Shown here one piece after another: positions 2,350 to 62,501 of a stretch of 64,000 nt of DNA. Where the stretch lies: the sequence record OL780484.1. One strand, given 5' to 3'. The DNA is from Escherichia phage vB_EcoM-E33. The translations under genes were made by a program, and so were the position numbers. The notes under the pieces were generated by a model. The model had not been told where the DNA came from. It did not search any database and saw nothing but the letters and a program-made list of their open reading frames with translations. Positions within the stretch are counted from its first letter, which is position 1. Each line of letters begins with the position of its first letter.

Positions 2350-2766
2350 ATGACTCGTATCAACCTTACCTTAGTATCTGAATTGGCTGACCAACACTTA
2401 ATGGCTGAATATCGTGAATTACCACGTGTTTTCGGTGCAGTTCGTAAGCATGTTGCTAATGGTAAACGTGTCCGTGATTTCAAAATCAGTCCTACTTTTA
2501 TCCTTGGCACAGGCCATGTTACATTCTTTTACGATAAGCTTGAATTTTTACGTAAGCGACAAATTGAGCTTATAGCCGAATGTTTAAAACGTGGTTTTAA
2601 TATCAAGGATACTACTGTCCAGGACATTAGTGACATTCCTCAGGAATTCCGTGGTGACTATACTCCACACGAAGCTTCTATTGCTATATCTCAGGCCCGT
2701 TTGGACGAAAAAATTGCACAACGCTCTACCTGGTACAAACATTACGGCAAGGCTATTTACGCTTAA
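2350..2766 (+). CDS. denV: endonuclease V (pyrimidine dimer DNA glycosylase)
   Basis: 138 aa; near-identical to remembered T4 endonuclease V ([28 protein letters not shown]...). Confidence 0.95.
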
Positions 2767-2808
2767 TTAAATCCGTGATAGAATACTTCTATCAACTTAA
2801 GGAATAAT

Positions 2809-3168
2809 ATGAAAACTTACCAACAATTTATTACTGAATCTACTCAGCGCATTAACGAAGCTATGTCTCCTGAACAATTGGCTAAGGCCAAAGAAGGGCT
2901 GAACCCATCTGAAGTTTTTAAAGTTACAGGTAAAGACTTTGCTTCCATGGCCACTAACCAGAGCTTGGCTAAAGAACTTAAATCTAAATCTAACTTCATT
3001 CATGCTACATGGAATGGTGATTCTCTTACTTCAATAAGTGTGTACAATAAAAAAGGTCTCCTTAAGAGTTCTTATGGCGCGGATGCCATCCGTGTTTCTA
3101 AATCAGATTGGCATAAAAACACTACTAAAGCAGAAAAACCTCATAACCCGGCACTAGACCATCTTTAA
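2809..3168 (+). CDS. internal head protein (Ip) with capsid targeting sequence
   Basis: N-terminus MKTYQQFITEST; 119 aa; first ~36 nt shared with the next gene. Confidence 0.65.
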   Translation: MKTYQQFITESTQRINEAMSPEQLAKAKEGLNPSEVFKVTGKDFASMATNQSLAKELKSKSNFIHATWNGDSLTSISVYNKKGLLKSSYGADAIRVSKSDWHKNTTKAEKPHNPALDHL

Positions 3169-3176
3169 GGCTTAAT

Positions 3177-3434
3177 ATGAAAACTTACCAAGAATTTATT
3201 ACAGAATCCACTTTAGTTTCTAAACGTTGGAATATGATTGTAAACGTTAAACCTTCCGGCACTGAAGTTTCTATGGCCGACCCTAATGATGACGAACTTG
3301 AGCACGCTTTTAGCTCTAAAGAAACTGACGAGAAAGTGGTTAAGCAACTGGTTGCTGATGCAGATCAACTTCGTAAAGTAGCAGATGTTGTTAAGCTGTT
3401 TACTAAGAAAGGTTTTAAACACGAAGAACGTTAA
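3177..3434 (+). CDS. internal head protein (Ip) with capsid targeting sequence
   Basis: N-terminus MKTYQEFITEST; 85 aa. Confidence 0.65.
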   Translation: MKTYQEFITESTLVSKRWNMIVNVKPSGTEVSMADPNDDELEHAFSSKETDEKVVKQLVADADQLRKVADVVKLFTKKGFKHEER

Positions 3435-5161: not shown

Positions 5162-5620
5162 ATGTCAGAAATTAATTCAGAAGTATTCATCCGCCGCAAT
5201 AAATTACGTCGTCAGTTCGAAACCGAATTCCGTGAACTGAATACGTCCATCAAAAAAGCCGCCATCAAGAGCGGAGTCCCAGCCTTCTTTATTAAGTACT
5301 CTAATCACTTGTTGGACCGTGCTATCCAACGTGAAATCGACGAAAAATACGTTTTTGCTTTATTCAAGCAACTCCATAACCATGTTAAAGAAATTCATGA
5401 ATTTTTAATCCAGGAACCTCTACCTGATGTAGAATCCGAAATTGTCCCTGGTAAAGTGTATCGTCCATTGCGTCTCGAAATTACCGATAAAACCTTATGG
5501 CTAGGTATGACAGTAGACCGTAAACATCCTGATAAAGGATATTCCCTTAAATGTCGTATGGCATTTGTTAACTCTAAACGTTTAGAAGGTAAAACCAGCA
5601 CGAAAGTAATCTATCTTTAA
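5162..5620 (+). CDS. regB: RegB site-specific endoribonuclease
   Basis: 152 aa; EVFIRRNKLRR...HLLDRAIQREIDE...RLEITD matches remembered T4 RegB; T4-like position. Confidence 0.75.
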   Translation: MSEINSEVFIRRNKLRRQFETEFRELNTSIKKAAIKSGVPAFFIKYSNHLLDRAIQREIDEKYVFALFKQLHNHVKEIHEFLIQEPLPDVESEIVPGKVYRPLRLEITDKTLWLGMTVDRKHPDKGYSLKCRMAFVNSKRLEGKTSTKVIYL

Positions 5621-5632
5621 TAATGAGGTCTC

Positions 5633-6172
5633 ATGAAAAAAGTATTAGCCACTTTACTATTGACAGTTAGTATGTCTGCCCATAGCGTAGAGCCTACTTT
5701 CAGTAATGAACAACTCGATAATTTACATTATGCGTATGCTTTCGGTGAACAATACCAAAAGTCGGGAAAGTTCAAAGAAAACCCTAATCAAAAAGGATTA
5801 GGATATATTATGGCCGGATTACTATGGCAGGAATCATCTGCCGGAATTAATCAGGGTTTAAATAAAGATAAGCACCATGCTTATGGCATGTTCCAAAATT
5901 ACTTGCCTACGTTAAGAAGTCGTGTTCAACAGGTAGGTTGGAAGATGTCTGACAAAGAAATAATTCGTATGGTCCAAAAACGACAGAACAGTGCCTCTTG
6001 GGCCTACATTGAACTGTCTTATTGGATTGATGTTCACAAAGGTGACCTGAGAAAAGCGATTGCTTCTTATAATGCGGGCTGGAACGCCAAAGCAGGCAGT
6101 AAATATGCTTCTGAAGTTCTAGAAAAGGCCAATTACCTAAAATCTAAAAAGATGTTTGAGGCGGTGTATTAA
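5633..6172 (+). CDS. secreted lytic-transglycosylase-like protein (SLT domain)
   Basis: Signal peptide; SLT-like motifs WQESSAG, AYGMFQ, ASYNAGW. Confidence 0.5.
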   Translation: MKKVLATLLLTVSMSAHSVEPTFSNEQLDNLHYAYAFGEQYQKSGKFKENPNQKGLGYIMAGLLWQESSAGINQGLNKDKHHAYGMFQNYLPTLRSRVQQVGWKMSDKEIIRMVQKRQNSASWAYIELSYWIDVHKGDLRKAIASYNAGWNAKAGSKYASEVLEKANYLKSKKMFEAVY

Positions 6173-6529
6173 ATGATTAAGCAGATGACTATAGCGCTTA
6201 TGTTGATTGCTCCGGGAGTATTAGCGTCACAAGTTGGTGATAGTAATAATTCAATTGTCGAGTATGCTACCCGTACAGCAAAAGATTATTGTCATCCGAG
6301 TAATACTGAATGCATTATCGAATTCAGTTCAAAAATCACAGCTGCTTTTAAAGATGGGCAGAACGACGTAGAGCATCGTCGAATGAAAGAGAAAACTCTT
6401 TCTAAAAGATACGAGCAACGTCTAAACGTTACTGAATGTATTCCATCTGATAAAAAGTACAAAGAAATGTGCGCGTCTATGGTAGACAGACTCGTTGACT
6501 CTTACAACCGAGGATTAAACTCTAAATGA
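6173..6529 (+). CDS. secreted hypothetical protein
   Basis: N-terminal signal peptide MIKQMTIALMLIAPGVLASQ; 118 aa. Confidence 0.45.
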   Translation: MIKQMTIALMLIAPGVLASQVGDSNNSIVEYATRTAKDYCHPSNTECIIEFSSKITAAFKDGQNDVEHRRMKEKTLSKRYEQRLNVTECIPSDKKYKEMCASMVDRLVDSYNRGLNSK

Positions 6530-6993
6530 TTATTGATTATATTAAGGGCGATATTGTCGCCCTATTTCTTCAAGGTAATAATGTTGCACACGGGTGCAAC
6601 TGTTTCCACACAATGGGTTCAGGTGTAGCTGGACAATTAGCTAAGGCTTATCCGCCTATTCTCGCTATCGATAAAACTACTTATTTAGGTAATTTGGCAA
6701 AACTTGGCACGTTTACTCAAGCCACAGGTAATAATGGCCAAATTTGCTATAATTTATATACCCAATACGAACCAGGCCCTAATCTTGATTATGGTGCTTT
6801 AGTAAACTGTATGATAGAATTAAATCAACAAGCAAAAGGTCTTTTGTTTAAACCAAGAATTTATATCCCTCGCATTGGTTGTGGTATTGCTGGTGGTGAT
6901 TGGGACAAGGTTTATCAATTGATTAATTTGTTTACTCCTGATATTAATTTAGTGGTGGTAGATTATGAAAGCCCATTACCCGCATCCGTTTGA
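6526..6993 (+). CDS. macro-domain protein (putative ADP-ribose binding/processing)
   Basis: GDIV...NVAHGCNC...MGSGVAGQL and PRIGCGIAGG resemble macro-domain signature motifs. Confidence 0.5.
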   Translation: MIIDYIKGDIVALFLQGNNVAHGCNCFHTMGSGVAGQLAKAYPPILAIDKTTYLGNLAKLGTFTQATGNNGQICYNLYTQYEPGPNLDYGALVNCMIELNQQAKGLLFKPRIYIPRIGCGIAGGDWDKVYQLINLFTPDINLVVVDYESPLPASV

Positions 6994-7177
6994 CCCTAAA
7001 AACAAAGCGGAAATTATTCGACGCTGGACCGAAACACGAGTAACTAAATGCCCTATAAAAAGTCAACACAACACCGATAAATGGTATATTGGTGAATATG
7101 TTGAGTATACTTTTATAGATAAAAATAAACGTAAACAGCATGTAGAAGAATATTGCTTAAAGGTGCAATGGTTATGA
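6965..7177 (+). CDS. hypothetical protein
   Basis: 70-aa ORF overlapping upstream gene end. Confidence 0.35.
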   Translation: MKAHYPHPFDPKNKAEIIRRWTETRVTKCPIKSQHNTDKWYIGEYVEYTFIDKNKRKQHVEEYCLKVQWL

Positions 7178-7347
7178 GTCTGAGTAAAGAACAGAAAGAT
7201 AAATTGTTTGAGCTTATCCATGAGCTTATGGAACTCAACATAGAATGTGAATTTGATAACTCTCTGGATTGGGATTGGAGAGGTGGTGAAGAGGATGAGT
7301 TTTCTAAAAAGGAAAATGAATTAATTGCTTATGTAAATAGTCTTTAA
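7174..7347 (+). CDS. hypothetical acidic protein
   Basis: ATG overlapping upstream TGA; 57 aa. Confidence 0.4.
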   Translation: MSLSKEQKDKLFELIHELMELNIECEFDNSLDWDWRGGEEDEFSKKENELIAYVNSL

Positions 7348-7356
7348 GAAGGTAAT

Positions 7357-7929
7357 ATGGCTCAACTTTATTTTCATTATGCGGCGATGAATTCCGGGAA
7401 AACCGCTTCATTGCTAACGGCAGCTCATAACTACAAAGAACGTGGTATGGGCGTACTCCTTTTAAAGCCTGCGATAGACAATAGAGAATCAAGCCATAGC
7501 ATTTCGTCTCGTATAGGGATTAGTCAAGAGGCTAATGCCGTGACTCCGGATATGGACCTATACGAGTTCTATCGTTGGGCTGAATCTCAAAAAGATATCC
7601 ACTGCGTATTTGTGGATGAAGCACAGTTCTTAGAACCTGCACAGATAAAACAACTGGCAAAGATAGTAGACAATTATAATGTTCCGGTTATGTGCTATGG
7701 GCTAAGAACTGATTTTCAGGGTAAACTGTTTCCTGGCTCTGCTGAATTACTCGCTACGGCAGATAAACTCGTTGAGTACAAAGGTGTGTGCCATTGTGGC
7801 CGTAAAGCTACTATGACTGCTAGGGTCCAGGATGGTATCGCAATTAAGGACGGCGCCCAAGTTTCTATAGGTGGCAACGATTCTTACGTGTCATTGTGCA
7901 GGAAGCACTGGATAGAAATAACGAGTTGA
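7357..7929 (+). CDS. tk: thymidine kinase
   Basis: 190 aa; P-loop AAMNSGKTASLL, VPVMCYGLRTDF, CHCGRKATMTAR zinc motif; close to remembered T4 Tk. Confidence 0.9.
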   Translation: MAQLYFHYAAMNSGKTASLLTAAHNYKERGMGVLLLKPAIDNRESSHSISSRIGISQEANAVTPDMDLYEFYRWAESQKDIHCVFVDEAQFLEPAQIKQLAKIVDNYNVPVMCYGLRTDFQGKLFPGSAELLATADKLVEYKGVCHCGRKATMTARVQDGIAIKDGAQVSIGGNDSYVSLCRKHWIEITS

Positions 7930-7936
7930 GGGTATT

Positions 7937-8215
7937 ATGGACCTAAATTCAAAGATTTTAATTCTAGCGTTCGCTGTGGCTATTTCTTATATTGTTCTTT
8001 CGCCTATCATGGATGATGTGGCTTACAAAAGAGAGATAGAGGTTGTAGCAGCGACGTATAATGCTAATAATAAAGAGTGTCCTAATAAAAACGGGATGGA
8101 TTTAATTAAAGCGCATTATATGCTTTCCATTACCTCGCCTATACAGAGGAATTGGGTTGAATATAATTTTAACGACGTGTTCTATTCTTATTGTCGTAAG
8201 CTTAAAAAGCTATAA
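7937..8215 (+). CDS. hypothetical membrane-anchored protein
   Basis: N-terminal TM segment; 92 aa. Confidence 0.45.
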   Translation: MDLNSKILILAFAVAISYIVLSPIMDDVAYKREIEVVAATYNANNKECPNKNGMDLIKAHYMLSITSPIQRNWVEYNFNDVFYSYCRKLKKL

Positions 8216-21501: not shown

Positions 21502-21794
21502 AACGTTTTGAAGAATATGTAGCTTTGAATTGGACCGCTTGGGACAAGTTTGGTGATGATTGGTACTTCCATGACTGTGACCTGAACCCTGAATTCTTTA
21601 AAGGTAAGGAAGACGACCTCAAGGACATCTATGCTCTGTCAGAGATTCATGGTATTAAACCTACTGTCTATTTCTCTTTTGATGATACCGGGTTCCTTAT
21701 CCAGATTTACGTCCCATACGGAACTAATGAAGACGAAGTTCTAAAAACTTGGGACTACCAAGGAGTTATTTCCTGTGGACCAAAAGTTAACTAA
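21498..21794 (+). CDS. hypothetical protein
   Basis: 98-aa ORF. Confidence 0.45.
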   Translation: MKRFEEYVALNWTAWDKFGDDWYFHDCDLNPEFFKGKEDDLKDIYALSEIHGIKPTVYFSFDDTGFLIQIYVPYGTNEDEVLKTWDYQGVISCGPKVN

Positions 21795-22092
21795 AATTGA
21801 GATTTACGGTATCCCTGAGACAGTCATGCGCTGTCCAGGGTGCATTGCTGTTCTATCGCTCCTAAATTCCCTTTCTATCCCACATACTTTCTATCCTGTG
21901 ATTAACCAGACGCCGTCAGGCGCAGTATACGACAAGCCTCTTATAGTATCATTGGCCAAACGTGCAGGCTTCAAGAGCTTAGCGATACGCTATCCTGTCA
22001 TATTTGTCGATAATAAGAAAATAGAAAATATTCCTGCCTTCAAATCGCTTTTGATTGAACTTGGTTATGACCAAGATTTAATTGAAGATTAG
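21775..22092 (+). CDS. glutaredoxin/NrdH-like redoxin
   Basis: IYGIP...CPGC CxxC motif and VIFVDNKKIENIP; T4 nrdH-like position upstream of 55. Confidence 0.4.
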   Translation: MDQKLTKIEIYGIPETVMRCPGCIAVLSLLNSLSIPHTFYPVINQTPSGAVYDKPLIVSLAKRAGFKSLAIRYPVIFVDNKKIENIPAFKSLLIELGYDQDLIED

Positions 22093-22093
22093 T

Positions 22094-22145
22094 ATTTACT
22101 TCCTCTCCTCACGTGTTATAGTCTATCCTATCAACACATGAGGAG
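22094..22145 (+). promoter_or_regulatory. early promoter (ATTTAC, TATAGT) with inverted repeat CTCCTCACGTGTT/AACACATGAGGAG covering the SD
   Basis: 13-bp arms with one mismatch flank the -10. Confidence 0.5.
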
Positions 22146-22151
22146 AACATT

Positions 22152-22334
22152 ATGACTATCCAAGATAAAGAAATTAAAGCCGACCAGTATTATTTGGTAA
22201 ATGGCTACCCTGTTCAAGTAACAAAGGTAACAAATCTCGATGTATGGTATCAACCTTTGACTCACCCTGATGCTCCATTGATGGTGTGCGACCGTTCTTT
22301 ATTTTGTTCAGTAGCTAAGGAAATTAAATCATGA
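22152..22334 (+). CDS. hypothetical protein
   Basis: 60-aa ORF. Confidence 0.4.
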   Translation: MTIQDKEIKADQYYLVNGYPVQVTKVTNLDVWYQPLTHPDAPLMVCDRSLFCSVAKEIKS

Positions 22335-22585
22335 GTCTGAAATTACATTCAATGAAAAATATCATTACCCTTAATCTGGATGATGAGCGCCTGATTTTTC
22401 TCACCGTCACTGATAAGAATATTGAAATTGCAAATGGTCCTAAGACTTATTGTTGCCCAGTGAAGAATTGGAAACATGTAACCTTTTTGACCCTGTGCGA
22501 CCGTCTGAAAGATATTAAGTTAGATTTGGATGTCAAAGATGTCCAATACATTAAAAATCTTATTGGATACAAACTGCTGAGGTAA
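22331..22585 (+). CDS. hypothetical protein
   Basis: 84-aa ORF. Confidence 0.4.
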   Translation: MSLKLHSMKNIITLNLDDERLIFLTVTDKNIEIANGPKTYCCPVKNWKHVTFLTLCDRLKDIKLDLDVKDVQYIKNLIGYKLLR

Positions 22586-22587
22586 CT

Positions 22588-22881
22588 ATGGGTAAAACTA
22601 TTCGTCGTAAAGAATTGTCTGTAAAAGATTTTTATTATTCCGGACGTCGTAAAGCACCTGACGGCGTAAGTCAGGAACTGGTTGAAGAAAATATATTCCG
22701 TTCCGACAAGTGGAAACGTATGCGCGGTGTTGATTCTGAAGTTAAGAATGAAATGAATCGCCAACTTCGTAAAGAAGTGAGAAAGCTGAAAAAAGATGTT
22801 TACAACGACGATGAACCTGATTACAATACTTCTCATCGAGTTGCAAAACGTAAATCAAACGAATGTTATCGTTATAGCTGA
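22588..22881 (+). CDS. hypothetical basic protein
   Basis: 97-aa ORF. Confidence 0.4.
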   Translation: MGKTIRRKELSVKDFYYSGRRKAPDGVSQELVEENIFRSDKWKRMRGVDSEVKNEMNRQLRKEVRKLKKDVYNDDEPDYNTSHRVAKRKSNECYRYS

Positions 22882-22888
22882 GGAAAAT

Positions 22889-23020
22889 ATGAATATCAAA
22901 CGAATGCTTTTTAAGCAAGGACTATACACTTTAAATGTTAGTCCAAAGGGCGATACAACCACGTGGTCAGTAAATGACTGGATTAAATTCATTGATAAAC
23001 ACGGAAACTGGAAAATTTAA
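22889..23020 (+). CDS. small hypothetical protein
   Basis: 43 aa from ATG 22889 after GAGGAAA SD. Confidence 0.3.
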   Translation: MNIKRMLFKQGLYTLNVSPKGDTTTWSVNDWIKFIDKHGNWKI

Positions 23021-23221
23021 ATGAATCCTGAATCTAAATTATCACAGCGAATTGCTGAAGCTCGTCGTCAGTTCTTTGAAAATATGATAGCCCAAGGTAT
23101 TGATGACGAAGTTTTTCTGAACTGGTTTTGGAACCACAAATATTCAAGTTGTTCAGGCGCTTTATTAATTTCAGCTGCATCTATGTACGAAGGCTGGAAA
23201 GGTGCAATGAGTCAAAAATAG
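23021..23221 (+). CDS. hypothetical protein
   Basis: 66-aa ORF. Confidence 0.4.
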   Translation: MNPESKLSQRIAEARRQFFENMIAQGIDDEVFLNWFWNHKYSSCSGALLISAASMYEGWKGAMSQK

Positions 23222-23289
23222 TTTACAAACTCTTGGGACCAGAGTATAATGGTCCTACGGATTATAACTTTAAAACTGAGGAAATTATT

Positions 23290-23619
23290 ATGTCACAAGC
23301 TATTAAAAACGTACTGAACTCTTTCGCTTTCGATAAAGTAAACGAACTGATGAAAACAGGTTTTGTAACTCCTCAGGTTCTTGACCAATGGGTTGCTGAA
23401 CTGTTACCAATCATGCACTCTAAAGACCAGAAAATTGGTAAGAACGGTATTCGTGAAATCCTGGTTCAATATATCCTTGATGAATTCGATGTCGCTGCCT
23501 TTGGTGTTGAATCCAAAGCTTGGTGCCCTGGCGAAATCACGGATAAAACTATCCGTCGTATGAAAAACCAACGTAAGAAAAAATTCGTTGACCTGAAAAT
23601 TGTTAAGGCAGCGAAATGA
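23290..23619 (+). CDS. hypothetical protein
   Basis: 109 aa from ATG 23290 (MSQAIKN) after TGAGGAAA SD. Confidence 0.45.
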   Translation: MSQAIKNVLNSFAFDKVNELMKTGFVTPQVLDQWVAELLPIMHSKDQKIGKNGIREILVQYILDEFDVAAFGVESKAWCPGEITDKTIRRMKNQRKKKFVDLKIVKAAK

Positions 23620-23882
23620 TTAAAATAAAACTCTCTAATTACGATAAAAACTTGGAAATGATTGCTATGAAAGAAGAACTCTTGAATGATGTCCGCTTTA
23701 CCGGTTATGCAGTTCAATTTAATGGTGATGGGGCTCTCCAGATTGAGGGTGACCACTTCATCATCGAATACGAATTTAAACAGTACTGGCTTTATGCGAA
23801 GGACGAAGTTGGTGGTGTTGATTACGTCGACGAGTTCGATAACCTGGATGATGCCTTAGAAGGAGCTCGATTCCTACAATGA
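23616..23882 (+). CDS. hypothetical protein
   Basis: 88-aa ORF. Confidence 0.45.
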   Translation: MIKIKLSNYDKNLEMIAMKEELLNDVRFTGYAVQFNGDGALQIEGDHFIIEYEFKQYWLYAKDEVGGVDYVDEFDNLDDALEGARFLQ

Positions 23883-24142
23883 AACCCATATCCACCACCC
23901 TCGCCTACGAAGGTCTCGGATTTTTCTTAATAGATAACTGTATGGATGTTGAGTTTGTTTGTGGTGAGACTTCTTTAGTATGGAAGTCTCATATTTCCAA
24001 ATACAACCATCGCGAATATCCAAGTCTTTTTAAAGAATTTTGTGGATATATGTCTGAACACGGGTGTACTGATACAATTTCTTATTCCGAGTTCACACAA
24101 ATCCTTGAAACAGTATTTCAGGCTTATTGCTTACTCCGTTGA
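23879..24142 (+). CDS. hypothetical protein
   Basis: 87-aa ORF. Confidence 0.45.
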   Translation: MKPISTTLAYEGLGFFLIDNCMDVEFVCGETSLVWKSHISKYNHREYPSLFKEFCGYMSEHGCTDTISYSEFTQILETVFQAYCLLR

Positions 24143-24177
24143 TGCTTTAAAAGGGTCTTCAAATACTATGATATAAT
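24143..24177 (+). promoter_or_regulatory. possible promoter upstream of gene 55 (TGCTTTA box, TACTAT/TATAAT)
   Basis: MotA-like box 24143-24149; -10 candidates at 24164-24169 and 24172-24177; spacing non-ideal. Confidence 0.3.
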
Positions 24178-24208
24178 AGACCTATGATTTGAGTTATCTG
24201 AGGTAACA

Positions 24209-24766
24209 ATGACCGAAATTAAACTGACTAAAAATAACTATGTAAATAATAAGGAGCTTCTGAAAGCTATCACCCAATGGAAAACAGAACTCAGAGAAAA
24301 TACCGATCCTAATAAAATAGTTCGCCAGAACGACGTTATCGGCTTGGCTATTATGCTCATTGCTGAAGGACTAAGTAAACGTTTCAACTTCTCAGGATAT
24401 ACCCAATCTTGGAAGCAAGAAATGATTGCTGATGGAATCGAAGCTTCGATTAAAGGTCTTCACAACTTCGACGAAACAAAATACGACAACCCACATGCAT
24501 ATATCACTATGGCTTGTTTTAATGCCTTCGTTCAGCGTATCAAAAAAGAACGTAAAGAAATGGCAAAGAAATATAGCTACTTCGTCCATAATGTCTATGA
24601 CAGTAATGATGACGACATGGTAGGTATTGCAGATGAAACCTTTATCCAAGATATCTACGACAAAATGACTCAGTATGAAACCTCTTTAACTAAAGCACCA
24701 GGGTCTGATAAGAGTGCCGAACCTAAAGTTGGTGAACTGGATTTTTTATATGGAACATCAGATTAA
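24209..24766 (+). CDS. 55: late-transcription sigma factor gp55
   Basis: 185 aa; YVNNKELL...[55 protein letters not shown] matches remembered T4 gp55. Confidence 0.9.
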
Positions 24767-24980
24767 TATCACTCCACTTTTAGATGGAATGGAAGACTTC
24801 GAAGCACTCCCTTATTTTATTAAATTGATATTACGGGATGTTAAAGGTCTTCCTATTGATATTGACCCACTTAACGTCAGGAATATTGAATTCACTTCTC
24901 CTGACAATAACGTAGATTACCGTTATCATGTTGAGAACGCTAATTTCTACTTCACTATTGAATTGACTCCAAAGGATTAA
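24750..24980 (+). CDS. hypothetical protein
   Basis: 76 aa; start uncertain. Confidence 0.35.
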
Positions 24981-24981
24981 T

Positions 24982-25293
24982 ATGCAAAGCCATGACATTT
25001 CTCAATTGACTGATGAGCAAATTGAAGAAGCCCAGCAACGTTTAGAAGAGCACAATATTAAAGAAGCTAATTCTCAAGCGGCTAAGATTCTTAAGAAGAA
25101 TGCTCGTGAAATCCGTCGTTTAAATCTCCATGCCCAAGGCGCTGTACTTGAAAACAACTTTGAAGCATATAAGTACGCTTTAATTAAATTACGTGGTATT
25201 TACCGTCAACCTGTTACTGATGAACTTGTTCAATTGATGTGGGAATCTACCCGCAAACAAATTTGGGAAATCGTCAATGGCCCTAGTAAATAA
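24982..25293 (+). CDS. hypothetical protein
   Basis: 103-aa ORF. Confidence 0.45.
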   Translation: MQSHDISQLTDEQIEEAQQRLEEHNIKEANSQAAKILKKNAREIRRLNLHAQGAVLENNFEAYKYALIKLRGIYRQPVTDELVQLMWESTRKQIWEIVNGPSK

Positions 25294-25477
25294 ACCCTTT
25301 AAACGGCTTCTTATTGGAGCCGCCTTTAGACTTCGCTCATACGGTAATATCTGTATTAAGCAGTCCGAAACCGAATATAAAATGGTCGGCCAGTATTCCG
25401 ATGGAATTTTTCGGATTGAGCCTGTAGCCAAGGTTTGGGTAGATTCTCATCAACTTAAGAAATGGTGGCAACGATGA
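25277..25477 (+). CDS. hypothetical protein
   Basis: 66-aa ORF. Confidence 0.35.
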   Translation: MALVNKPFKRLLIGAAFRLRSYGNICIKQSETEYKMVGQYSDGIFRIEPVAKVWVDSHQLKKWWQR

Positions 25478-25535
25478 TAACGTGGACAGGCGGCTAATGA
25501 AAGACGAATACGAAAAAGTTTAAGAGGTTGTATGA

Positions 25536-25709
25536 ATGACGAATTCGATGGATTTTGATAAGATTAAATCTGACAAAAATGAGATGATACTTCAATTTGA
25601 AGCCGCTCGTATTAAAGCAGAAAATGAAGGTACTATTACCTATAAGCCTATCAAGTTCAGGTCTAATCACGAACCTCTGTACGGTGTATTAGTTGGTAAA
25701 GGAGCTTAG
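25536..25709 (+). CDS. small hypothetical protein (57 aa)
   Basis: AAGAGG SD then ATG 25536; stop lies inside the terminator hairpin; not in ORF track. Confidence 0.3.
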   Translation: MTNSMDFDKIKSDKNEMILQFEAARIKAENEGTITYKPIKFRSNHEPLYGVLVGKGA

Positions 25710-25720
25710 GCTCCTTTTTT
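25701..25720 (+). terminator. rho-independent terminator
   Basis: GGAGC-ttag-GCTCC followed by T6. Confidence 0.65.
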
Positions 25721-25743
25721 GCTTTCTGAATGGATGATAAAAT
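25720..25743 (+). promoter_or_regulatory. possible MotA-dependent middle promoter for gene 47
   Basis: TGCTTTC box, 11-nt spacer, TAAAAT; T4 46/47 are middle genes. Confidence 0.35.
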
Positions 25744-25774
25744 AAATCTATGAAATACATTATAAAGGTAGATT

Positions 25775-26797
25775 ATGAAAATTTTGAATATAGGTGATTT
25801 GCATATCGGAGTAAAAGCCGATGACCCTTGGATTCAGGAAATCCAGCTTAACGGTATTAAACAGGCTGTAGAATATTCTAAAGCAAACAATATTGATACA
25901 TGGATTCAATATGGTGATTGGTTCGATGTACGCAAGGCTATCACCCATAAATGTATGGAATTTAATCGTGGTCTGGTGGAAATTATCAGCGATGCAGGTA
26001 TTAAAGTCCATGTTATAATTGGTAACCATGATGCAACGTTTAAAAATAGCATAACTCCTAATGCGGTTTCTGAACTTCTTACTCAGTATGAAAATTTTAC
26101 TGTTTACGAGAAACCTACTACGGTTAATTTTGATGGCACCGAAATTGATTTGATTCCATGGATGTGTGAAGAAAACACGACCGATATCATGGACCATATC
26201 AAAAATACTACAGCAGATTTCTGCATTGGCCACTGGGAATTAAATGGTTTCTATTTCTATAAAGGAATGAAATCACATGGTTTAGAACCTGATTTCCTTA
26301 AGAAGTATAAGCAAGTATGGTCTGGTCACTTCCACACCATTTCTGATGCAGCAAACGTCAAGTATATTGGTACGCCATGGACCCTGACTGCAGGTGATGA
26401 GAACGACCCTCGTGGCTTCTGGATTTTCGATACAGAAACCCATAAAATGGATTTCATCATCAATGAAACTTGTTGGCACCGTAAGATTCATTATCCAAAC
26501 GCGACTATCGATTACAAAGATTTTACAAATATCGCAGTTCGTGTTATAGTCGATAAAATTGATGACGGTCTTACTAAGTTCGAATCAGAGCTTGAAAAGG
26601 TTGTCCACTCTTTACGTATCGTGTCTAAGGTAGATAACAGTGTTGATATCGATGATTCTGAAGAGGAAGATGAAGTTAAGTCCCTCTTGGATATAATGTA
26701 TGATTATATCGATGCCCTTCCTGATGGCCACACTGAAGACGATGTTAAAGCCCTTAAGACTATGGCCGCACAACTTTATAATGAGGTTACACGATGA
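25775..26797 (+). CDS. 47: recombination endonuclease subunit gp47 (Mre11-like)
   Basis: 340 aa; calcineurin-like phosphoesterase motifs GDLH, GNHD; followed by gp46 as in T4. Confidence 0.85.
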   Translation: MKILNIGDLHIGVKADDPWIQEIQLNGIKQAVEYSKANNIDTWIQYGDWFDVRKAITHKCMEFNRGLVEIISDAGIKVHVIIGNHDATFKNSITPNAVSELLTQYENFTVYEKPTTVNFDGTEIDLIPWMCEENTTDIMDHIKNTTADFCIGHWELNGFYFYKGMKSHGLEPDFLKKYKQVWSGHFHTISDAANVKYIGTPWTLTAGDENDPRGFWIFDTETHKMDFIINETCWHRKIHYPNATIDYKDFTNIAVRVIVDKIDDGLTKFESELEKVVHSLRIVSKVDNSVDIDDSEEEDEVKSLLDIMYDYIDALPDGHTEDDVKALKTMAAQLYNEVTR

Positions 26798-43516: not shown

Positions 43517-43834
43517 ATGAAAACCATCGACTGTAAAGCAGAATATAAAGTGTATTATCATGGAAGTTGTAGTGTTGCTAATATCGGTAATATGCTTTGT
43601 CCTCCTGAGGAAACAGGAGTTCTGTCTGAAACCAGTCGTAAGAAAAACCTGAATCGTGTGTTCTTTACTGAAGATATCGGTTTGGCTAAGATTTATGCTG
43701 GACGTGCAGCCCGTTCAGTGGGAGGAGAACCTCGTCTTTATCGTGTAATTGCTCCGGTAGATGTGGTTTGTTTAAATGATACTAAAGGCGCTACGGTTTA
43801 TCATGCTGAATGGGCCTTCTGTGAGGAAATCTAA
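43517..43834 (+). CDS. hypothetical protein
   Basis: 106 aa from ATG 43517 after GGAGA SD; lies between 41 and dmd. Confidence 0.45.
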   Translation: MKTIDCKAEYKVYYHGSCSVANIGNMLCPPEETGVLSETSRKKNLNRVFFTEDIGLAKIYAGRAARSVGGEPRLYRVIAPVDVVCLNDTKGATVYHAEWAFCEEI

Positions 43835-44098: not shown

Positions 44099-44392
44099 AT
44101 GAAAAAGTTATTAATCGCAGCAATTCTTGCCGTAGCATCATGTGGTACAGCCCCAGTTACTGCTGGACTTGATAAAGACCTTTGTGAATGGTCTATGACT
44201 GCAGACCAAGAATCAGTCGAACATCAGATTTATGCTGATATCATGAACATCACTAAACGTGACCGCCCTGATATGGTTAAAGAAGTGTCAGACCAATTGG
44301 CTTCAAGCGGCGTTATGCAGTATAACTATGTTCTGTATTGTGACGCTAATTTCGATAACAAAAACATCGTTAAAGAGGTGACAGGTGAATAA
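44099..44392 (+). CDS. Spackle-like periplasmic protein
   Basis: 97 aa with signal peptide/lipobox VASC; size and position match T4 sp (61.3). Confidence 0.4.
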   Translation: MKKLLIAAILAVASCGTAPVTAGLDKDLCEWSMTADQESVEHQIYADIMNITKRDRPDMVKEVSDQLASSGVMQYNYVLYCDANFDNKNIVKEVTGE

Positions 44393-44825
44393 GATTAACA
44401 GAAATTTAGTTATCAAAAAACTTCGTTGTAAAAATCCAAATGCACAGGCATACAGGATGTTTTGGAGCGACGACCACCAATACCTAGGTTATTTTCTTGT
44501 TGATAGTGATGATAGAATTACAATGGCTCATAAACTTCTTAACAGAGAATTAAACCATTGGCAAGAACTTATTGCGGTGAGGTCTAAATTATTTTCATGC
44601 AATACAATGCACCAATTGGTTTATTTTTTCGCCGATGGTATTCCTGACAAGGTTGAGTTTGATGGGTTTGAATTTAAAGACATCCTCCCGGACAACGAAT
44701 TGAACGACTGTGTTAATATGGATATCCCTAGCAAGTATATCAAAAACAGTCTGTTGAAAATTCTGGAAGCTCCGGTTTATTCAATTGACGACCAGATTTT
44801 TAATGCCTTTATGAATCGAGGTTAA
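44385..44825 (+). CDS. hypothetical protein
   Basis: 146-aa ORF. Confidence 0.45.
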   Translation: MNKINRNLVIKKLRCKNPNAQAYRMFWSDDHQYLGYFLVDSDDRITMAHKLLNRELNHWQELIAVRSKLFSCNTMHQLVYFFADGIPDKVEFDGFEFKDILPDNELNDCVNMDIPSKYIKNSLLKILEAPVYSIDDQIFNAFMNRG

Positions 44826-46718: not shown

Positions 46719-47375
46719 ATGAATTACGAAAAAATATACCAGGAATTAATATCTAAAGGAAAATTAAGAGGTTCTAAGCGGTCTTTATCATATTATACGG
46801 AAGAACACCATGTTATACCTAGATGTATGAATGGTTCTGATGATAAAAACAATTTAGTTGCTTTATTGCCAAGAGAACACTTTGTAGCTCATAGGCTTTT
46901 AACAAAAATATATCCCGAAGTAAAAGGTCTACATTATGCTGTTAATTTAATGAGATATAATAAAGGAGTTAAATTAACTAGTAGAACTATAGCCACGTTA
47001 AGAGAAAATAACGCTAAAGCATTTTCAGGAAAAAATAACCCGATGTTTGGTAAACCTTCCTGGATTAGAGGGATGAAAACTCCTGAAGAAACTAAAGCCA
47101 AAATGCGCCTGGCTCATAAAGATAAAATTATATCTGATGAAGCCAAGGCCAATATGAGTAAAGCTAGAAAAGGAAGATTTAGTGGTAAAGATTCCCCTAG
47201 ATATGGTTTGCCGAATCCTAGGCGTGGAGAAATATGGAATAGTTACGATATGCTTTACGAATTATGGGTTTACAATAATAAACCTAAACGCACCAAATTT
47301 AATAAAATAGCTGTTGATAATGGATATCCTGATATTTGTTATCGACGAATGATAGAAAACTTTAATAGGAAATAA
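46719..47375 (+). CDS. Mob-type HNH homing endonuclease
   Basis: HNH motif EEHHVIPRCMNGSDDKNNLVALLPREH; NUMOD3-like GKNNPMFGK; AT-rich; paralog of 11078-11842. Confidence 0.7.
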   Translation: MNYEKIYQELISKGKLRGSKRSLSYYTEEHHVIPRCMNGSDDKNNLVALLPREHFVAHRLLTKIYPEVKGLHYAVNLMRYNKGVKLTSRTIATLRENNAKAFSGKNNPMFGKPSWIRGMKTPEETKAKMRLAHKDKIISDEAKANMSKARKGRFSGKDSPRYGLPNPRRGEIWNSYDMLYELWVYNNKPKRTKFNKIAVDNGYPDICYRRMIENFNRK

Positions 47376-50035: not shown

Positions 50036-50605
50036 ATGAACATCGAACAAAAATGTCTTTATCAAGACCGAATCAATTCCAAATTCTCAAAACACGAACA
50101 GAATCTTTTAGAAAAATGTCTGGATGCTAAAAAAGACCCTAACTTCCATTACGACCTTGACAAACTGGTTCGCAAGCATGTTACTTCAGCGGTTCCAGTA
50201 GAGTTGTATCGTGGGATTACCACCAGAGAACTTGAGCAATTAGAGCTCCTTTCAGTAGGGTGTCAATGGTCTCCTGGTCGAGTTACTTCTTTTAGTACAC
50301 AATACTCTCAGGCTCGTCAGTTCGCAGGGGCGTGGGAATATGGAACCAAAACCATTTTAAGTCTCAGGAATGCACCGTTCATTTTCGACTACTACAACCA
50401 TGCTATAGACCTTGTTCTTGCAGGGAATGTAGACGCCCTTGAAATTGATGAAACTCGTATTGACCTCTATGATATGGTCGAAACTGAATGTGAGTTCATG
50501 GTCTCTAGCCAATCGCGATTTGAGATTGTTGCAATCGAAACCGTCAAAAGAGACCCGTATGATATCGAGTACAAAACAATTCATTTAAAAATGTTGGATT
50601 TTTAG
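50036..50605 (+). CDS. Mod-type ADP-ribosyltransferase (ModA/ModB family)
   Basis: R-S-E motifs: LYRGI, SFS, ECEF; tandem paralog of the next gene; T4 mod-like position. Confidence 0.55.
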   Translation: MNIEQKCLYQDRINSKFSKHEQNLLEKCLDAKKDPNFHYDLDKLVRKHVTSAVPVELYRGITTRELEQLELLSVGCQWSPGRVTSFSTQYSQARQFAGAWEYGTKTILSLRNAPFIFDYYNHAIDLVLAGNVDALEIDETRIDLYDMVETECEFMVSSQSRFEIVAIETVKRDPYDIEYKTIHLKMLDF

Positions 50606-50659: not shown

Positions 50660-51274
50660 ATGTTATACCCTAACCACAGATTATCAGAGTTCTATGACAA
50701 TGTTAAGTGCGATGATTTCCGTGAAAACATTCAGTGTGAAATCGACCAGCAGTATTCTGATTTAGAACAGAGTACCCTCTGGCTGTGTATGGAAAATAAA
50801 CCGGATTGCATCCAAGAAACTCTGAATAAAATTATCCGTAAGAATCTGACTTCTGTAGTGCCTGACAAGCTGTACCGTGGAATTTCTAAGAAAACTTTGA
50901 AATACCTTGAATCGGTAGGATGTGTCGGCGCTACTATTGAATTTGACAGGGTAATGAGCTTCTCTAAAGATTTTAAGATTGCCCGTAATTTTGCTTCATA
51001 TAATTTTTACGGAACTAAAAATATTTTCTGTATTAACGATGCCCCCTTTGCATTTGATTATCAGGAAGCAATCTTTAAAATGATTTGTGGCGCTCCTCCC
51101 GAAGAGTTCAACGGGCCGTATCCTGAAATAACTCGAACTTCAAACTTACAACTAGTGAATGATGAGGATGAGATGATGTTCCCTGCGGGAACTACGCTGC
51201 GCGTAGACTCTATTGAGAAGGTTTATGGATGGCAAGATTATACATTATGGAATCTTTCCGTTCTTTCTTACTGA
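50660..51274 (+). CDS. Mod-type ADP-ribosyltransferase (ModA/ModB family)
   Basis: LYRGIS, SFS, DEDEMMF; paralog of 50036-50605. Confidence 0.55.
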   Translation: MLYPNHRLSEFYDNVKCDDFRENIQCEIDQQYSDLEQSTLWLCMENKPDCIQETLNKIIRKNLTSVVPDKLYRGISKKTLKYLESVGCVGATIEFDRVMSFSKDFKIARNFASYNFYGTKNIFCINDAPFAFDYQEAIFKMICGAPPEEFNGPYPEITRTSNLQLVNDEDEMMFPAGTTLRVDSIEKVYGWQDYTLWNLSVLSY

Positions 51275-60290: not shown

Positions 60291-62501
60291 ATGATTATTG
60301 AAACCGAAAAAGAACAAATCATTGGTAATGGTGCTAAGTCCACAGGCTTTACTATTCAGGCATCGCCTAAGGTCTTTAAAATTTTGTCATCAGACCTTTA
60401 TAGTAATAAAGTACGTGCCGTAGTTCGTGAACTAATTACCAACATGATTGATGCCCATATTCTAAATGGTAATAAAGAACGTTGGAAAGTACAGGTTCCT
60501 GGTAAACTAGACCCTCGCTTTGTATGTCGTGATTTCGGTCCGGGTATGAGTGATTTCCAAATTCGTGGTGATGAAAACGAAACAGGTTTGTATAACTCTT
60601 ATTTCGCGTCGTCCAAAACCGCTTCTAACGATTTCATCGGCGGCTTTGGCCTTGGTTCAAAATCTCCGTTCAGTTATACCGAAACGTTTAATATTACCTC
60701 ATGGCACAATGGCGAAGTTCGCGGTTATGTAGCATATATGGATGGTGATGGCCCGCAGATTAAACCTACTTTCGTAGAACCTATGCAGCCAGGTGATAAA
60801 ACAGGTATCGAAATCACGGTTCCTGTTGATGAAGAAGATTTCCGTAAGTTTGAAACTGAAGTTCGTTATATCATGCGGCCTTTCATTGGTCTTGGTGATG
60901 TAGACGGTGTTGAAGTTGATTATTTCCCTGAATTTGACGATTACCATCCTGTAACCACTACAAATTATGGCAGCTTCGAACGTTCAGGACTTTATGCAGT
61001 TTATGGTGGTATTGTTTATCCATTGGATTCTGCCTATAATAAAGGCACATGGATGCGTACTCGCCATGATGTAGTTTATATTAAGTTCCCTATGGGTTCA
61101 CTGGATATTGCTCCGTCTCGTGAAGTGTTGTCTCTTGATAAACGTACGATGGAAAATATTGCAACCCGTATCGAAGCACTGGATGCAGTGGTCTTTAAAA
61201 ACGATACACAGGAATGGGTTGAATCTGATAATCCACGCCATGTTTATCGTGACCTTTCTAACCTTGGTTACAGTGCTCGTGACTATCTTACCAAAAAAGG
61301 TGGAACTAGCCTGTTTACTACAGAAAAATTGACATATGAGAAATTATACCAGCGTTATACCCTTCAAAACGACCTTATTAATTTAGGTGTGGTTTACGAA
61401 GTCGTTTCAGACCCACGTTTGAAACGAATTAAGTCAAGTGGTAATACTTCTTCGGTAGCAGGACTTAGTAATTTATTAGGCATTAATAAGAAAGAAATCC
61501 ATGTTGTTTATGATGATGAAAAAGGTCGTGTGCCATTAGTTCGAGGTCTTTGGGCTCTGGCAATGGACAACAGTGCTTCGGCTAAGAAAATTGTTAAAGA
61601 GAACAATATTCCTAAATACGGAACTGACCTTATTTTTGTCGACCCAAATTCAATGTTGCAAATGCAACAACTTGAAAAGGTTAAAGAACTTTTTAAAGGT
61701 GACACAATTCATTTTTATAAAGTCTCTGAACTGAATAAAATTGTTAAGCCATGGATTCCGGTTACTGTCCGTTCATCAGAACCGCGTCCTAAAACACCGA
61801 GTGCTTATCGTTGGTTCATTAAAGACGGGCGCTGGCAACAAGAGACCATGTATTTGACTGCTGCCGAAGCAGAAGAAATTACAGGTTATGTTCTGTTTGG
61901 CAGTCGTTCTGATATTATGGGAATGGATGAAGCTTATGGTATCTTTGACATCAATACCACTACCATGTGTCGTATGGCTAATTTGATTGGTGCTACCGAA
62001 TTCCATATCATTCGCCCTCAGATTGCCAAAAAGATTAAAAAGTTAGGCCAATGCGAATGCTTGATGGAAGCTACATTAGAAGCTTATGCTGAAGCCTTAG
62101 ACGCGGTAGATGTTGATGACTACCTTGGTAGCAATACTCGAGCTCGGTATTACCTTGAAATCATTGCTAAGTTCCCTCAGCTTAATTTCATGACCAAGTA
62201 TTTCAGTGATAAGCCGGTGACTGAAGCATATACTCGTCTGAGTAATTTCTATGATATATTCCGTTATATGAATTTCGGCGGATATATCACTGATGATAAG
62301 CTTTCCGTTATCAAGAAAATTTGTAACAATACTTTTTTTAAGTTGACTGATAATGCTTCAAGCAACAATGATAAAATGACTGTACAGTTTGAATCTGATT
62401 ACCATTTAGTTTCAGACTACATGTATCGTCGTGGAACATCCATTACCGAGGCTTCTGTAGCTCAAATTGTTAAATTCATGAAAGCCGTGGAAGCGGCTTA
62501 A
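60291..62501 (+). CDS. rIIA: rIIA protein
   Basis: 736 aa; HATPase-like N-terminus (RELITNMIDA, GGFGLGSKSPF); size and position before rIIB. Confidence 0.8.
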   Translation: MIIETEKEQIIGNGAKSTGFTIQASPKVFKILSSDLYSNKVRAVVRELITNMIDAHILNGNKERWKVQVPGKLDPRFVCRDFGPGMSDFQIRGDENETGLYNSYFASSKTASNDFIGGFGLGSKSPFSYTETFNITSWHNGEVRGYVAYMDGDGPQIKPTFVEPMQPGDKTGIEITVPVDEEDFRKFETEVRYIMRPFIGLGDVDGVEVDYFPEFDDYHPVTTTNYGSFERSGLYAVYGGIVYPLDSAYNKGTWMRTRHDVVYIKFPMGSLDIAPSREVLSLDKRTMENIATRIEALDAVVFKNDTQEWVESDNPRHVYRDLSNLGYSARDYLTKKGGTSLFTTEKLTYEKLYQRYTLQNDLINLGVVYEVVSDPRLKRIKSSGNTSSVAGLSNLLGINKKEIHVVYDDEKGRVPLVRGLWALAMDNSASAKKIVKENNIPKYGTDLIFVDPNSMLQMQQLEKVKELFKGDTIHFYKVSELNKIVKPWIPVTVRSSEPRPKTPSAYRWFIKDGRWQQETMYLTAAEAEEITGYVLFGSRSDIMGMDEAYGIFDINTTTMCRMANLIGATEFHIIRPQIAKKIKKLGQCECLMEATLEAYAEALDAVDVDDYLGSNTRARYYLEIIAKFPQLNFMTKYFSDKPVTEAYTRLSNFYDIFRYMNFGGYITDDKLSVIKKICNNTFFKLTDNASSNNDKMTVQFESDYHLVSDYMYRRGTSITEASVAQIVKFMKAVEAA

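Follow-up and report, generated by a model that had tools for sequence, protein, structure and literature searches.

The gene treated here is an open reading frame (ORF) at 6526..6993 (stop codon counted) on the + strand of a 64,000-nucleotide (nt) stretch from Escherichia phage vB_EcoM-E33 (sequence record OL780484.1; hereafter the window, by which we mean the whole stretch), and it encodes a stand-alone protein of 155 amino acids (aa). We identified this protein, with near certainty, as the macrodomain protein Tk.4, known from phage T4 and also named AdfM (anti-DarT factor, macrodomain). Its main role would be to remove from phage DNA the ADP-ribose (ADPR) added by the toxin DarT2, a reading to which we give a probability of about 0.6 and not more, because the role rests on one preprint on T4 and the mechanism on inference. 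The gene itself is not new, its orthologue being already named tk.4/adfM: it is one more orthologue of a named counter-defence factor, in a well-sampled group of coliphages.

Positions 5600-8000 of the window were 99.3% identical to Escherichia phage QL01 (Straboviridae, Tevenvirinae, Dhakavirus; 2.4 kilobases (kb) compared) and the Tk.4 proteins of the two were 100% identical; we assigned the window to Dhakavirus (JS98/QL01-like), that is, to a T4-type coliphage. Aligned with T4 Tk.4 (NP_049723), the window protein gave 53% identity and 73% positives over 155/155 residues (E=8e-63), which makes T4 Tk.4 nearer to it than the Adpp-type proteins (38%) or PhiKZ AdfM (20%), and in a simple, rough neighbour-joining tree, built without bootstrap support, the window protein and T4 Tk.4 fell in one T4-like (Straboviridae) clade. 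We considered the window gene as the syntenic orthologue of T4 tk.4 because the two have full-length identity, a common gene order and a common ATGA overlap with the upstream gene.

Like the window protein, T4 Tk.4 (AdfM) is 155 aa long and encoded between vs and tk.3. The two share the invariant residues H22, N25, Q80, G118 and G120, and their genes share a conserved hairpin formed by codons 7-13. They differ in 47% of the residues, in the second glycine loop (GCGIAGG in the window protein, GAGIGKG in T4 Tk.4) and in the disordered C-terminal tail, which in the window protein is 4 residues longer and overlaps the start of tk.3. The gene is called tk.4 in the records that keep T4 names (Bp7, IME08, AR1, RB43); in the T4 record it is labelled 'phosphatase; contains A1pp phosphatase motif', and the GenBank labels in T4-like phages are 'A1pp phosphatase motif' or 'macro domain protein'.

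Macrodomain fold and active site

An earlier reading of the window, made from its letters without database searches (the sequence-only reading), had reported at 6526-6993 a 155-aa ORF with macro-domain motifs. The ORF list confirmed the frame (ATG at 6526, TGA at 6991-6993), and the motifs were present as GDIV (residues 8-11), NVAHGCNC (19-26), MGSGVAGQL (30-38) and PRIGCGIAGG (115-124). The search with hidden Markov models against the Pfam Macro families, which the same reading had proposed as a check, also came out in its favour, since PF01661 was matched with 33.4 bits against a cut-off of 22 (E=4.9e-8), over profile positions 2-117 of 118. The protein matched PHROG 335 as well (E=6e-67). 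Such agreement is well outside what chance would give.

For the comparison with known structures we used a family profile and alignment of 38 relatives, 36-96% identical to the window protein. Searched against PDB, the profile matched BT1257 (1.5e-19), TARG1 (1.7e-17), SCO6735 (3e-16), Poa1p (9e-15) and M. tuberculosis DarG (6.6e-11). The AlphaFold2 model made on the same alignment had a mean predicted local distance difference test (pLDDT) score of 93.8, with disorder confined to the last five residues, and the three-layer alpha/beta fold and the two glycine-rich loops lining an ADP-ribose cleft, by which a macrodomain is recognised, were both found. On sequence profile, fold prediction and fold search together, we classified the protein as a macrodomain and, precisely, as a stand-alone putative macrodomain hydrolase, TARG1/ALC1-like.

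Sixteen residues were invariant among the 38 relatives, including H22, G23, N25, G33, A35, N76, Y78, T79, Q80, P115, G118, G120 and W126. Four sites encoded on the + strand gather most of them. In H22-G23-C24-N25 (6589..6600), where all but C24 are invariant, N25 is opposite DarG N22 and SCO6735 N27 (hhalign to DarG), while H22 is opposite Poa1p H23 (hhalign) and TARG1 H32. The first glycine-rich loop, M30-G-S-G-V-A-G36 (6613..6633), predicted from the alignment to bind the diphosphate of ADP-ribose, holds the invariant G33 and A35 and aligns with the MGAGIA / MGKGVA loops of TARG1 and DarG. The second glycine-rich loop, P115-R-I-G-C-G-I-A-G-G124 (6868..6897), predicted to bind the substrate, holds the invariant P115, G118 and G120; here G118/G120 are opposite SCO6735 G126/G128, and A122 is opposite TARG1 D125. 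The fourth site is the codon of Q80 (6763..6765), at the position of the catalytic lysine and within the motif N76-L-Y78-T79-Q80, which the profile alignment places against 'LITK' of TARG1 and 'MIGQ' of BT1257. Q80 is opposite DarG K80, TARG1 K84, SCO6735 Gln85 and Poa1p S84.

In the hhalign comparison with DarG-type macrodomains (probability 98.7%), Q80 is opposite the lysine of the DarG 'FPTK' motif (K80 in Thermus aquaticus DarG), and it is a glutamine in all 38 relatives. At the catalytic site, the Tk.4 lineage is accordingly read here as not DarG-like, having Gln in place of the lysine of DarG and TARG1. TARG1 (OARD1) uses the catalytic pair K84/D125, which corresponds to Q80/A122 in the window protein according to the profile alignment, and Poa1p has Ser at the position of Q80 and a large insertion ahead of the second loop.

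We took SCO6735 as the closest characterised chemistry to that of the window protein because Q80 sits at the position of the catalytic lysine and the partner D125 is replaced by A122. In SCO6735, Gln85 replaces the lysine and is essential for activity, Asn27 positions Gln85 (the role of the conserved DarG asparagine is described alongside it), the mutation G128E lowers activity, and a water-mediated mechanism has been proposed; the enzyme hydrolyses the thymidine-ADPr that DarT makes on DNA, at a higher rate than DarG or TARG1, and it rescues the toxicity of DarT (PMC9411070). The residues matching Gln85, Asn27 and Gly128 are Q80, N25 and G120, invariant in the 38 members. SCO6735 and BT1257 (PDB 5E3B, 2FG1/2AFC) have in common with the window protein the Gln in place of Lys, the Asn, the His and the PRIGCG(L/I)AGG loop; they differ from it in being 25-30% identical products of bacterial chromosomal genes and in an insertion of about 6 residues, the 'mobile loop', where the window and T4 proteins have a short loop. 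In the profile alignment, the insertion of BT1257 against the phage family measures 6 residues. What defines the subclass of SCO6735/BT1257 is a mobile loop that exceeds those of DarG and TARG1 by about five residues: the window protein has the Gln/Asn/Gly residues of this subclass and lacks its extended loop.

Membership of the window protein in the DarG family was considered and rejected, since the lysine is a Gln, the scores are far under the cut-offs, and there is neither a DarT-binding domain nor a darT neighbour. On the DarG model of PADLOC, PhiKZ gp104 scored 133 bits, T4 Tk.4 36 bits and the window protein 25 bits, the latter matching only positions 3-142 of the 329 of the model; on the NCBIfam DarG equivalog NF048014 the window protein scored 20.6 bits against a cut-off of 250. 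PhiKZ gp104, also named AdfM (2026), removes DarT2-made ADP-ribose from an oligonucleotide in vitro (PMC13309987). It has the FPTK lysine, matches M. tuberculosis DarG at E=9e-25, and is about 20% identical to the window protein. The DarG macrodomain (PDB 5M3I, 5M31) and PhiKZ AdfM share with the window protein the conserved Asn and the proposed job; they have the catalytic lysine in FPTK, whereas the window protein has Q80 and, unlike DarG, lacks both a C-terminal domain for binding DarT and a darT gene beside it, its neighbours being vs and tk.3. As judged from these alignments, the name AdfM spans two separate macrodomain lineages, one of lysine type and one of glutamine type, and the window protein may work like DarG despite lying outside the DarG family.

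Proposed removal of ADP-ribose from DNA, and the competing substrates

The role proposed for the window protein comes from its T4 orthologue. In a HIDEN-SEQ preprint of November 2025 (bioRxiv 10.1101/2025.11.20.689424), a library of T4 transposon mutants was screened on a host expressing DarTG2; tk.4 alone came out as a significant hit, and T4 became sensitive to DarTG2 when the gene was cleanly deleted. Its authors, who noted that Tk.4 resembles the DarG macrodomain in structure, gave the gene the new name adfM and suggested the stripping of ADP-ribose from DNA as the function of the protein. The target of DarT2 is thymidine in single-stranded DNA, which it ADP-ribosylates; DarG2 undoes this modification, while the NADAR protein gp30.3 (AdfN) is the matching counter to DarTG1 (PMC11825919). 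The sequence-only reading had proposed the gene as an anti-defence candidate reversing host-imposed ADP-ribosylation; the sensitised T4 deletion supports this proposal, and the infection of DarTG hosts that it had suggested matches the published work on T4. A more distant homologue, Adpp, which processes ADPR-1''-phosphate from the defence aRES, can be cited beside the same reading.

The window orthologue is likely to have the T4 role and to act by de-ADP-ribosylation of DNA. Precisely, the host toxin DarT2 would put ADP-ribose on thymidines of single-stranded phage DNA, and replication would be blocked. Tk.4 would hold the ADP-ribose moiety between the glycine-rich loops M30-G36 and P115-G124 and hydrolyse the bond at C1'' in the distal ribose, giving free ADP-ribose and a restored thymidine. 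Since the catalytic position is occupied by the glutamine Q80, we would expect an SCO6735-like catalysis, in which Q80, positioned by N25, would take the lysine-independent, water-mediated route proposed for SCO6735, unlike DarG/TARG1.

Several points weigh against this role. The anti-DarTG2 phenotype comes from one preprint and was obtained on T4 rather than on this phage, and our literature search, in which the HIDEN-SEQ preprint was the one relevant work, found no biochemical study of a Tk.4-type protein. At 53% identity the specificity may differ, and the second loop is one of the places where the two proteins diverge. The window protein is without the catalytic lysine and outside the DarG family, as its scores on the PADLOC and NCBIfam models indicate. 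Homologues at about 38% identity, with the same H22/N25/Q80/GxG residues, lie in NARP1 operons and one of them is a proven ADPR-1''-phosphate phosphatase, so that sequence alone cannot part the two activities. In addition, the family is without the extended, positively charged 'mobile loop', which in SCO6735 was proposed to aid action on DNA (PMC9411070). The isoelectric point was tried as a pointer to a DNA substrate and dropped, being 5.5 for the window protein and 5.05 for PhiKZ AdfM, a proven DNA de-ADP-ribosylase.

The best surviving alternative, which we nevertheless consider unlikely, is that the protein mainly does what phage Adpp and yeast Poa1p do as ADP-ribose-1''-phosphate phosphatases, converting ADPR-1''-phosphate (ADPR-1P) to ADP-ribose; the substrate would be made by NADases with a RES domain, of which aRES is one, or would be left as a side product of RNA 2'-phosphotransferase reactions, and this activity is the one named by the old GenBank label 'phosphatase'. 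The RES-domain defence aRES cleaves NAD+ to give ADPR-1P; in vitro, Adpp of Vibrio phage Gary (KNV71_gp137) turns this into ADPR, whereby NARP1 can rebuild NAD+ and overcome aRES (bioRxiv 10.64898/2026.01.28.702374, January 2026); the Adpp residues mutated in that work are unnamed in the text of the preprint. Gary Adpp belongs to the same phage protein family as the window protein. The link passes through gp179 of Vibrio phage Kronos, which is 38% identical to the window protein (E=2e-23) and 94.3% identical to its Gary counterpart, encoded at the corresponding locus next to Adps.

The NARP1 context of these homologues is recurrent, and it speaks for the phosphatase: the operon of Kronos (Thalassavirus) consists of Adps, the macrodomain and Namat, that of Acinetobacter phage phiAbaA1 (Saclayvirus) of Adps, a hypothetical gene, Namat and the macrodomain, and in Pseudomonas Pakpunavirus Ab1 the macrodomain is in a NARP1 neighbourhood too. 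In these NARP1-linked proteins the H, N, Q and GxG residues of the window protein are retained. Moreover, H22 aligns with Poa1p H23, the target of the H23A mutant in PDB 6LFS, and both reactions cut at C1'' of ADP-ribose, so that one active site might serve both. The same Poa1p alignment also tells against the phosphatase, since Poa1p has Ser at the position of Q80, and T29, which is opposite Poa1p S30, is not conserved in the family.

The gene context of Gary Adpp, between Adps and Namat and with a small-molecule substrate, is not that of the window phage. Searched by tblastn with two queries each for Adps and Namat, the window and the complete genome of QL01 gave nothing below E=0.3, and the two genes are absent from the QL01 annotation; the pathway context of the phosphatase is therefore gone, and ADPR alone would not rebuild NAD+ in the manner of NARP1-AP. 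The sole phenotype reported for the direct orthologue, in the preprint text at hand, concerns DarTG2. The NARP1-linked proteins fell outside the T4-like clade, on a different branch of the rough neighbour-joining tree, and Kronos gp179 and phiAbaA1 gp060 have a longer loop after the Gln at position 80, which the Tk.4 type is without. The position of tk.4, flanked by vs and tk.3, is kept even in an Aeromonas T4-like phage whose protein is 38% identical. Catalytic residues were tried and rejected as a means of parting the Adpp type from the Tk.4 type, as loop length, tree position and gene context alone differ.

A further reading joins the two activities instead of opposing them. T4-type AdfM would belong to a phage-wide glutamine-type family that includes Adpp, not being a captured DarG, and would serve two purposes as an eraser, countering DarTG2 on the one hand and RES-type NADases on the other; a single active site may cleave either thymidine (in DNA) or phosphate from C1''. 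We regard this as possible, if on balance doubtful. Were it true, anti-DarT2 activity would have been reached at least twice independently, by the lysine-type PhiKZ AdfM and by the glutamine-type T4 Tk.4. The distinction between glutamine and lysine and the shared ancestry with Adpp are the only additions that we make to the literature on this protein.

The extent of the family bears on how its members are labelled. By tblastn, relatives of the window protein were found in 2,733 of 50,697 phage records, and the window protein and Kronos gp179, used as queries, each recovered about 2,730 phage records, identical in their taxonomic composition. PHROG 335 (~2,700 of 50,697 phage records) holds members with two different demonstrated roles, and therefore the labels 'phosphatase', 'macro domain protein' and 'AdfM' are not transferable without a check of the gene context. 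In Escherichia typing phage 1 (Felixounavirus; 2495-3280), the homologous macrodomain is the N-terminal part of a 261-aa protein labelled 'phosphatase'.

We considered it very improbable that the protein reverses ADP-ribosylation of proteins, either tuning the marks of the phage's own Alt/ModA/ModB or erasing those of host enzymes. The sequence-only reading had noted two Mod-type ADP-ribosyltransferases in the window and named them in connection with the macrodomain. The enzymes are there: the ORFs 50036-50605 (E=2.5e-37) and 50660-51274 (E=3.9e-41) match PHROG 832, RNA polymerase ADP-ribosylase, and correspond to QL01 modB and modA. QL01 has in addition three tandem Alt-like ADP-ribosyltransferase genes. 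A link to the phage's own ModA/ModB found no support. Alt and Mod enzymes modify arginine, and macrodomains of this class are not known to cleave arginine-linked ADP-ribose. The TARG1 catalytic pair is absent, its positions being occupied by Q80 and A122; tk.4 is not next to alt or mod genes; and the T4 deletion phenotype is reported, in the part of the preprint available, only on a DarTG2 host.

Equally remote is a role on RNA, such as the removal of CmdT-type mRNA marks or of ADP-ribose from RNA phosphate ends. TARG1 and several macrodomains do reverse the ADP-ribosylation of RNA phosphate ends (PMC11833690). However, CmdTAC gives robust defence against T-even phages, all carriers of tk.4 (PMC11618068), and therefore Tk.4 evidently does not neutralise it; and SCO6735, a close Gln-type relative that has been characterised, was inactive on 5'-phosphate-linked ADP-ribosylated RNA/DNA and on 2'-OH RNA in the Results of PMC11833690, one sentence in whose Discussion says the opposite for phosphate ends. 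The binding or degradation of Thoeris-like ADP-ribose-derived signals, which a comparative-genomics survey would favour, since it proposed soluble ADP-ribose derivatives as the main targets of phage Macro domains (PMC9503650), is as improbable, the family having no known connection with Thoeris signals.

If the window protein removes DarT2-made ADP-ribose, as we prefer, Dhakavirus phages with tk.4 would be expected to be DarTG2-resistant, which is of some practical use for phage therapy and for predicting host range. Outside the window, QL01 encodes at 130413-130871 a homologue of gp30.3/AdfN (Pfam Phage_30_3, 215 bits), which would be expected to cover DarTG1; judging from these matches, the QL01 lineage pairs NADAR (against DarTG1) with the macrodomain, like T4, and we count this parallel counter-defence as a point for the preferred role.

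A different state was found at the slot of T4 gp61.2 (AdfA, anti-DarT factor A). Between spackle and 61.1 the window has a 146-aa ORF (44385-44825, + strand) of which only the last 14 residues (SIDDQIFNAFMNRG) match gp61.2, with 100% identity, the remainder being unrelated; it belongs to PHROG 8539, and with Pfam AdfA it scored 16 bits, under the cut-off. The gene 61.2 slot holds a mosaic replacement, so that the phage is probably without a canonical AdfA.

Gene neighbourhood and the hairpin inside tk.4

All the genes around tk.4 considered here are on the + strand. Upstream, vs (valyl-tRNA synthetase modifier; 6173..6529) was identified by PHROG 1256 (E=2.7e-34) and by the annotations of QL01 and T4, and it fixes the synteny. 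Its stop codon and the tk.4 start overlap in an ATGA (6526..6529, + strand; sequence and ORF table), which suggests translational coupling; the same 4-nt overlap is present in T4 (vs 61386-61733, tk.4 60922-61389 in the T4 record). Downstream, the tk.3 orthologue (6965..7177; PHROG 2008, E=1e-38; 'tk.3 gene product' in QL01) starts 29 nt within the 3' end of tk.4, whereas the T4 overlap at this point is 4 nt. The thymidine kinase gene tk, our second synteny anchor, is at 7357..7929 (ORF and QL01 annotation), which agrees with the sequence-only reading in placing the macrodomain gene near tk. The order regB, vs.1, vs, tk.4, tk.3, tk.2, tk is common to the window, QL01 and T4. Comparing the window tk.4 with three orthologues, we obtained pairwise ratios of nonsynonymous to synonymous substitutions (dN/dS) of 0.09-0.30, and because of these values we consider the gene as being under purifying selection.

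Within tk.4, codons 7-13 (6545..6563, + strand) contain a conserved GC-rich hairpin of 8 base pairs, AGGGCGAT-ATT-GTCGCCCT, followed by a U-rich stretch and recovered as a terminator-like site in our scan. Its stem is identical in T4, sb3, QL01 and ESCO10, although the synonymous divergence (dS) of tk.4 from T4 is 1.6, hence saturated, whereas the loop bases vary freely. The hairpin was found in 13 of 79 related viral loci, always together with the peptide KGD[IL]VAL or EGDLISL. Across 13 distinct sequences, which were picked because they have the hairpin, all the stem positions pair, and two pairs show compensatory changes, precisely from G-C to A-U and from C-G to A-U, the latter together with a change of Val-Ala to Ile-Ser.

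Resampling of synonymous codons in a single sequence gave p about 0.05 for the hairpin, a weak value, since the DNA coding for the peptide KGDIVAL is palindromic by nature. We consider the cross-species conservation and the covariation as more persuasive than this resampling. The hairpin looks like an intrinsic terminator and could be an attenuator/terminator between vs and tk.4, or an element for translation or RNA stability.

Further loci in the window and in QL01

For the ORF 43517-43834 the PDB sequence searches gave no match, and the fold search alone was informative. A 218-aa HNH/NUMOD3 homing-endonuclease gene (PHROG 655, E=2e-54) is located at 46719-47375 (+ strand), between gene 61 (primase) and gene 56, where QL01 has just a small ORF on the opposite strand; this gene explains part of the offset of ~1.7 kb between the window and QL01 coordinates.

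In QL01, the interval 21758-26469, lying between uvsX and imm and occupied in T4 by beta-gt and gene 42, corresponds to an estimated ~36-41 kb of the window. According to the annotation, it contains a hypothetical gene, a thymidylate-synthase-like gene, a kinase, a phosphoheptose-isomerase-like gene and two hypotheticals of 557 aa and 166 aa. From the annotation and from what is known of related phages, we take the thymidylate-synthase-like gene to be probably a dCMP hydroxymethylase, and the cluster may presumably serve a modification of hydroxymethylcytosine with a sugar other than glucose.

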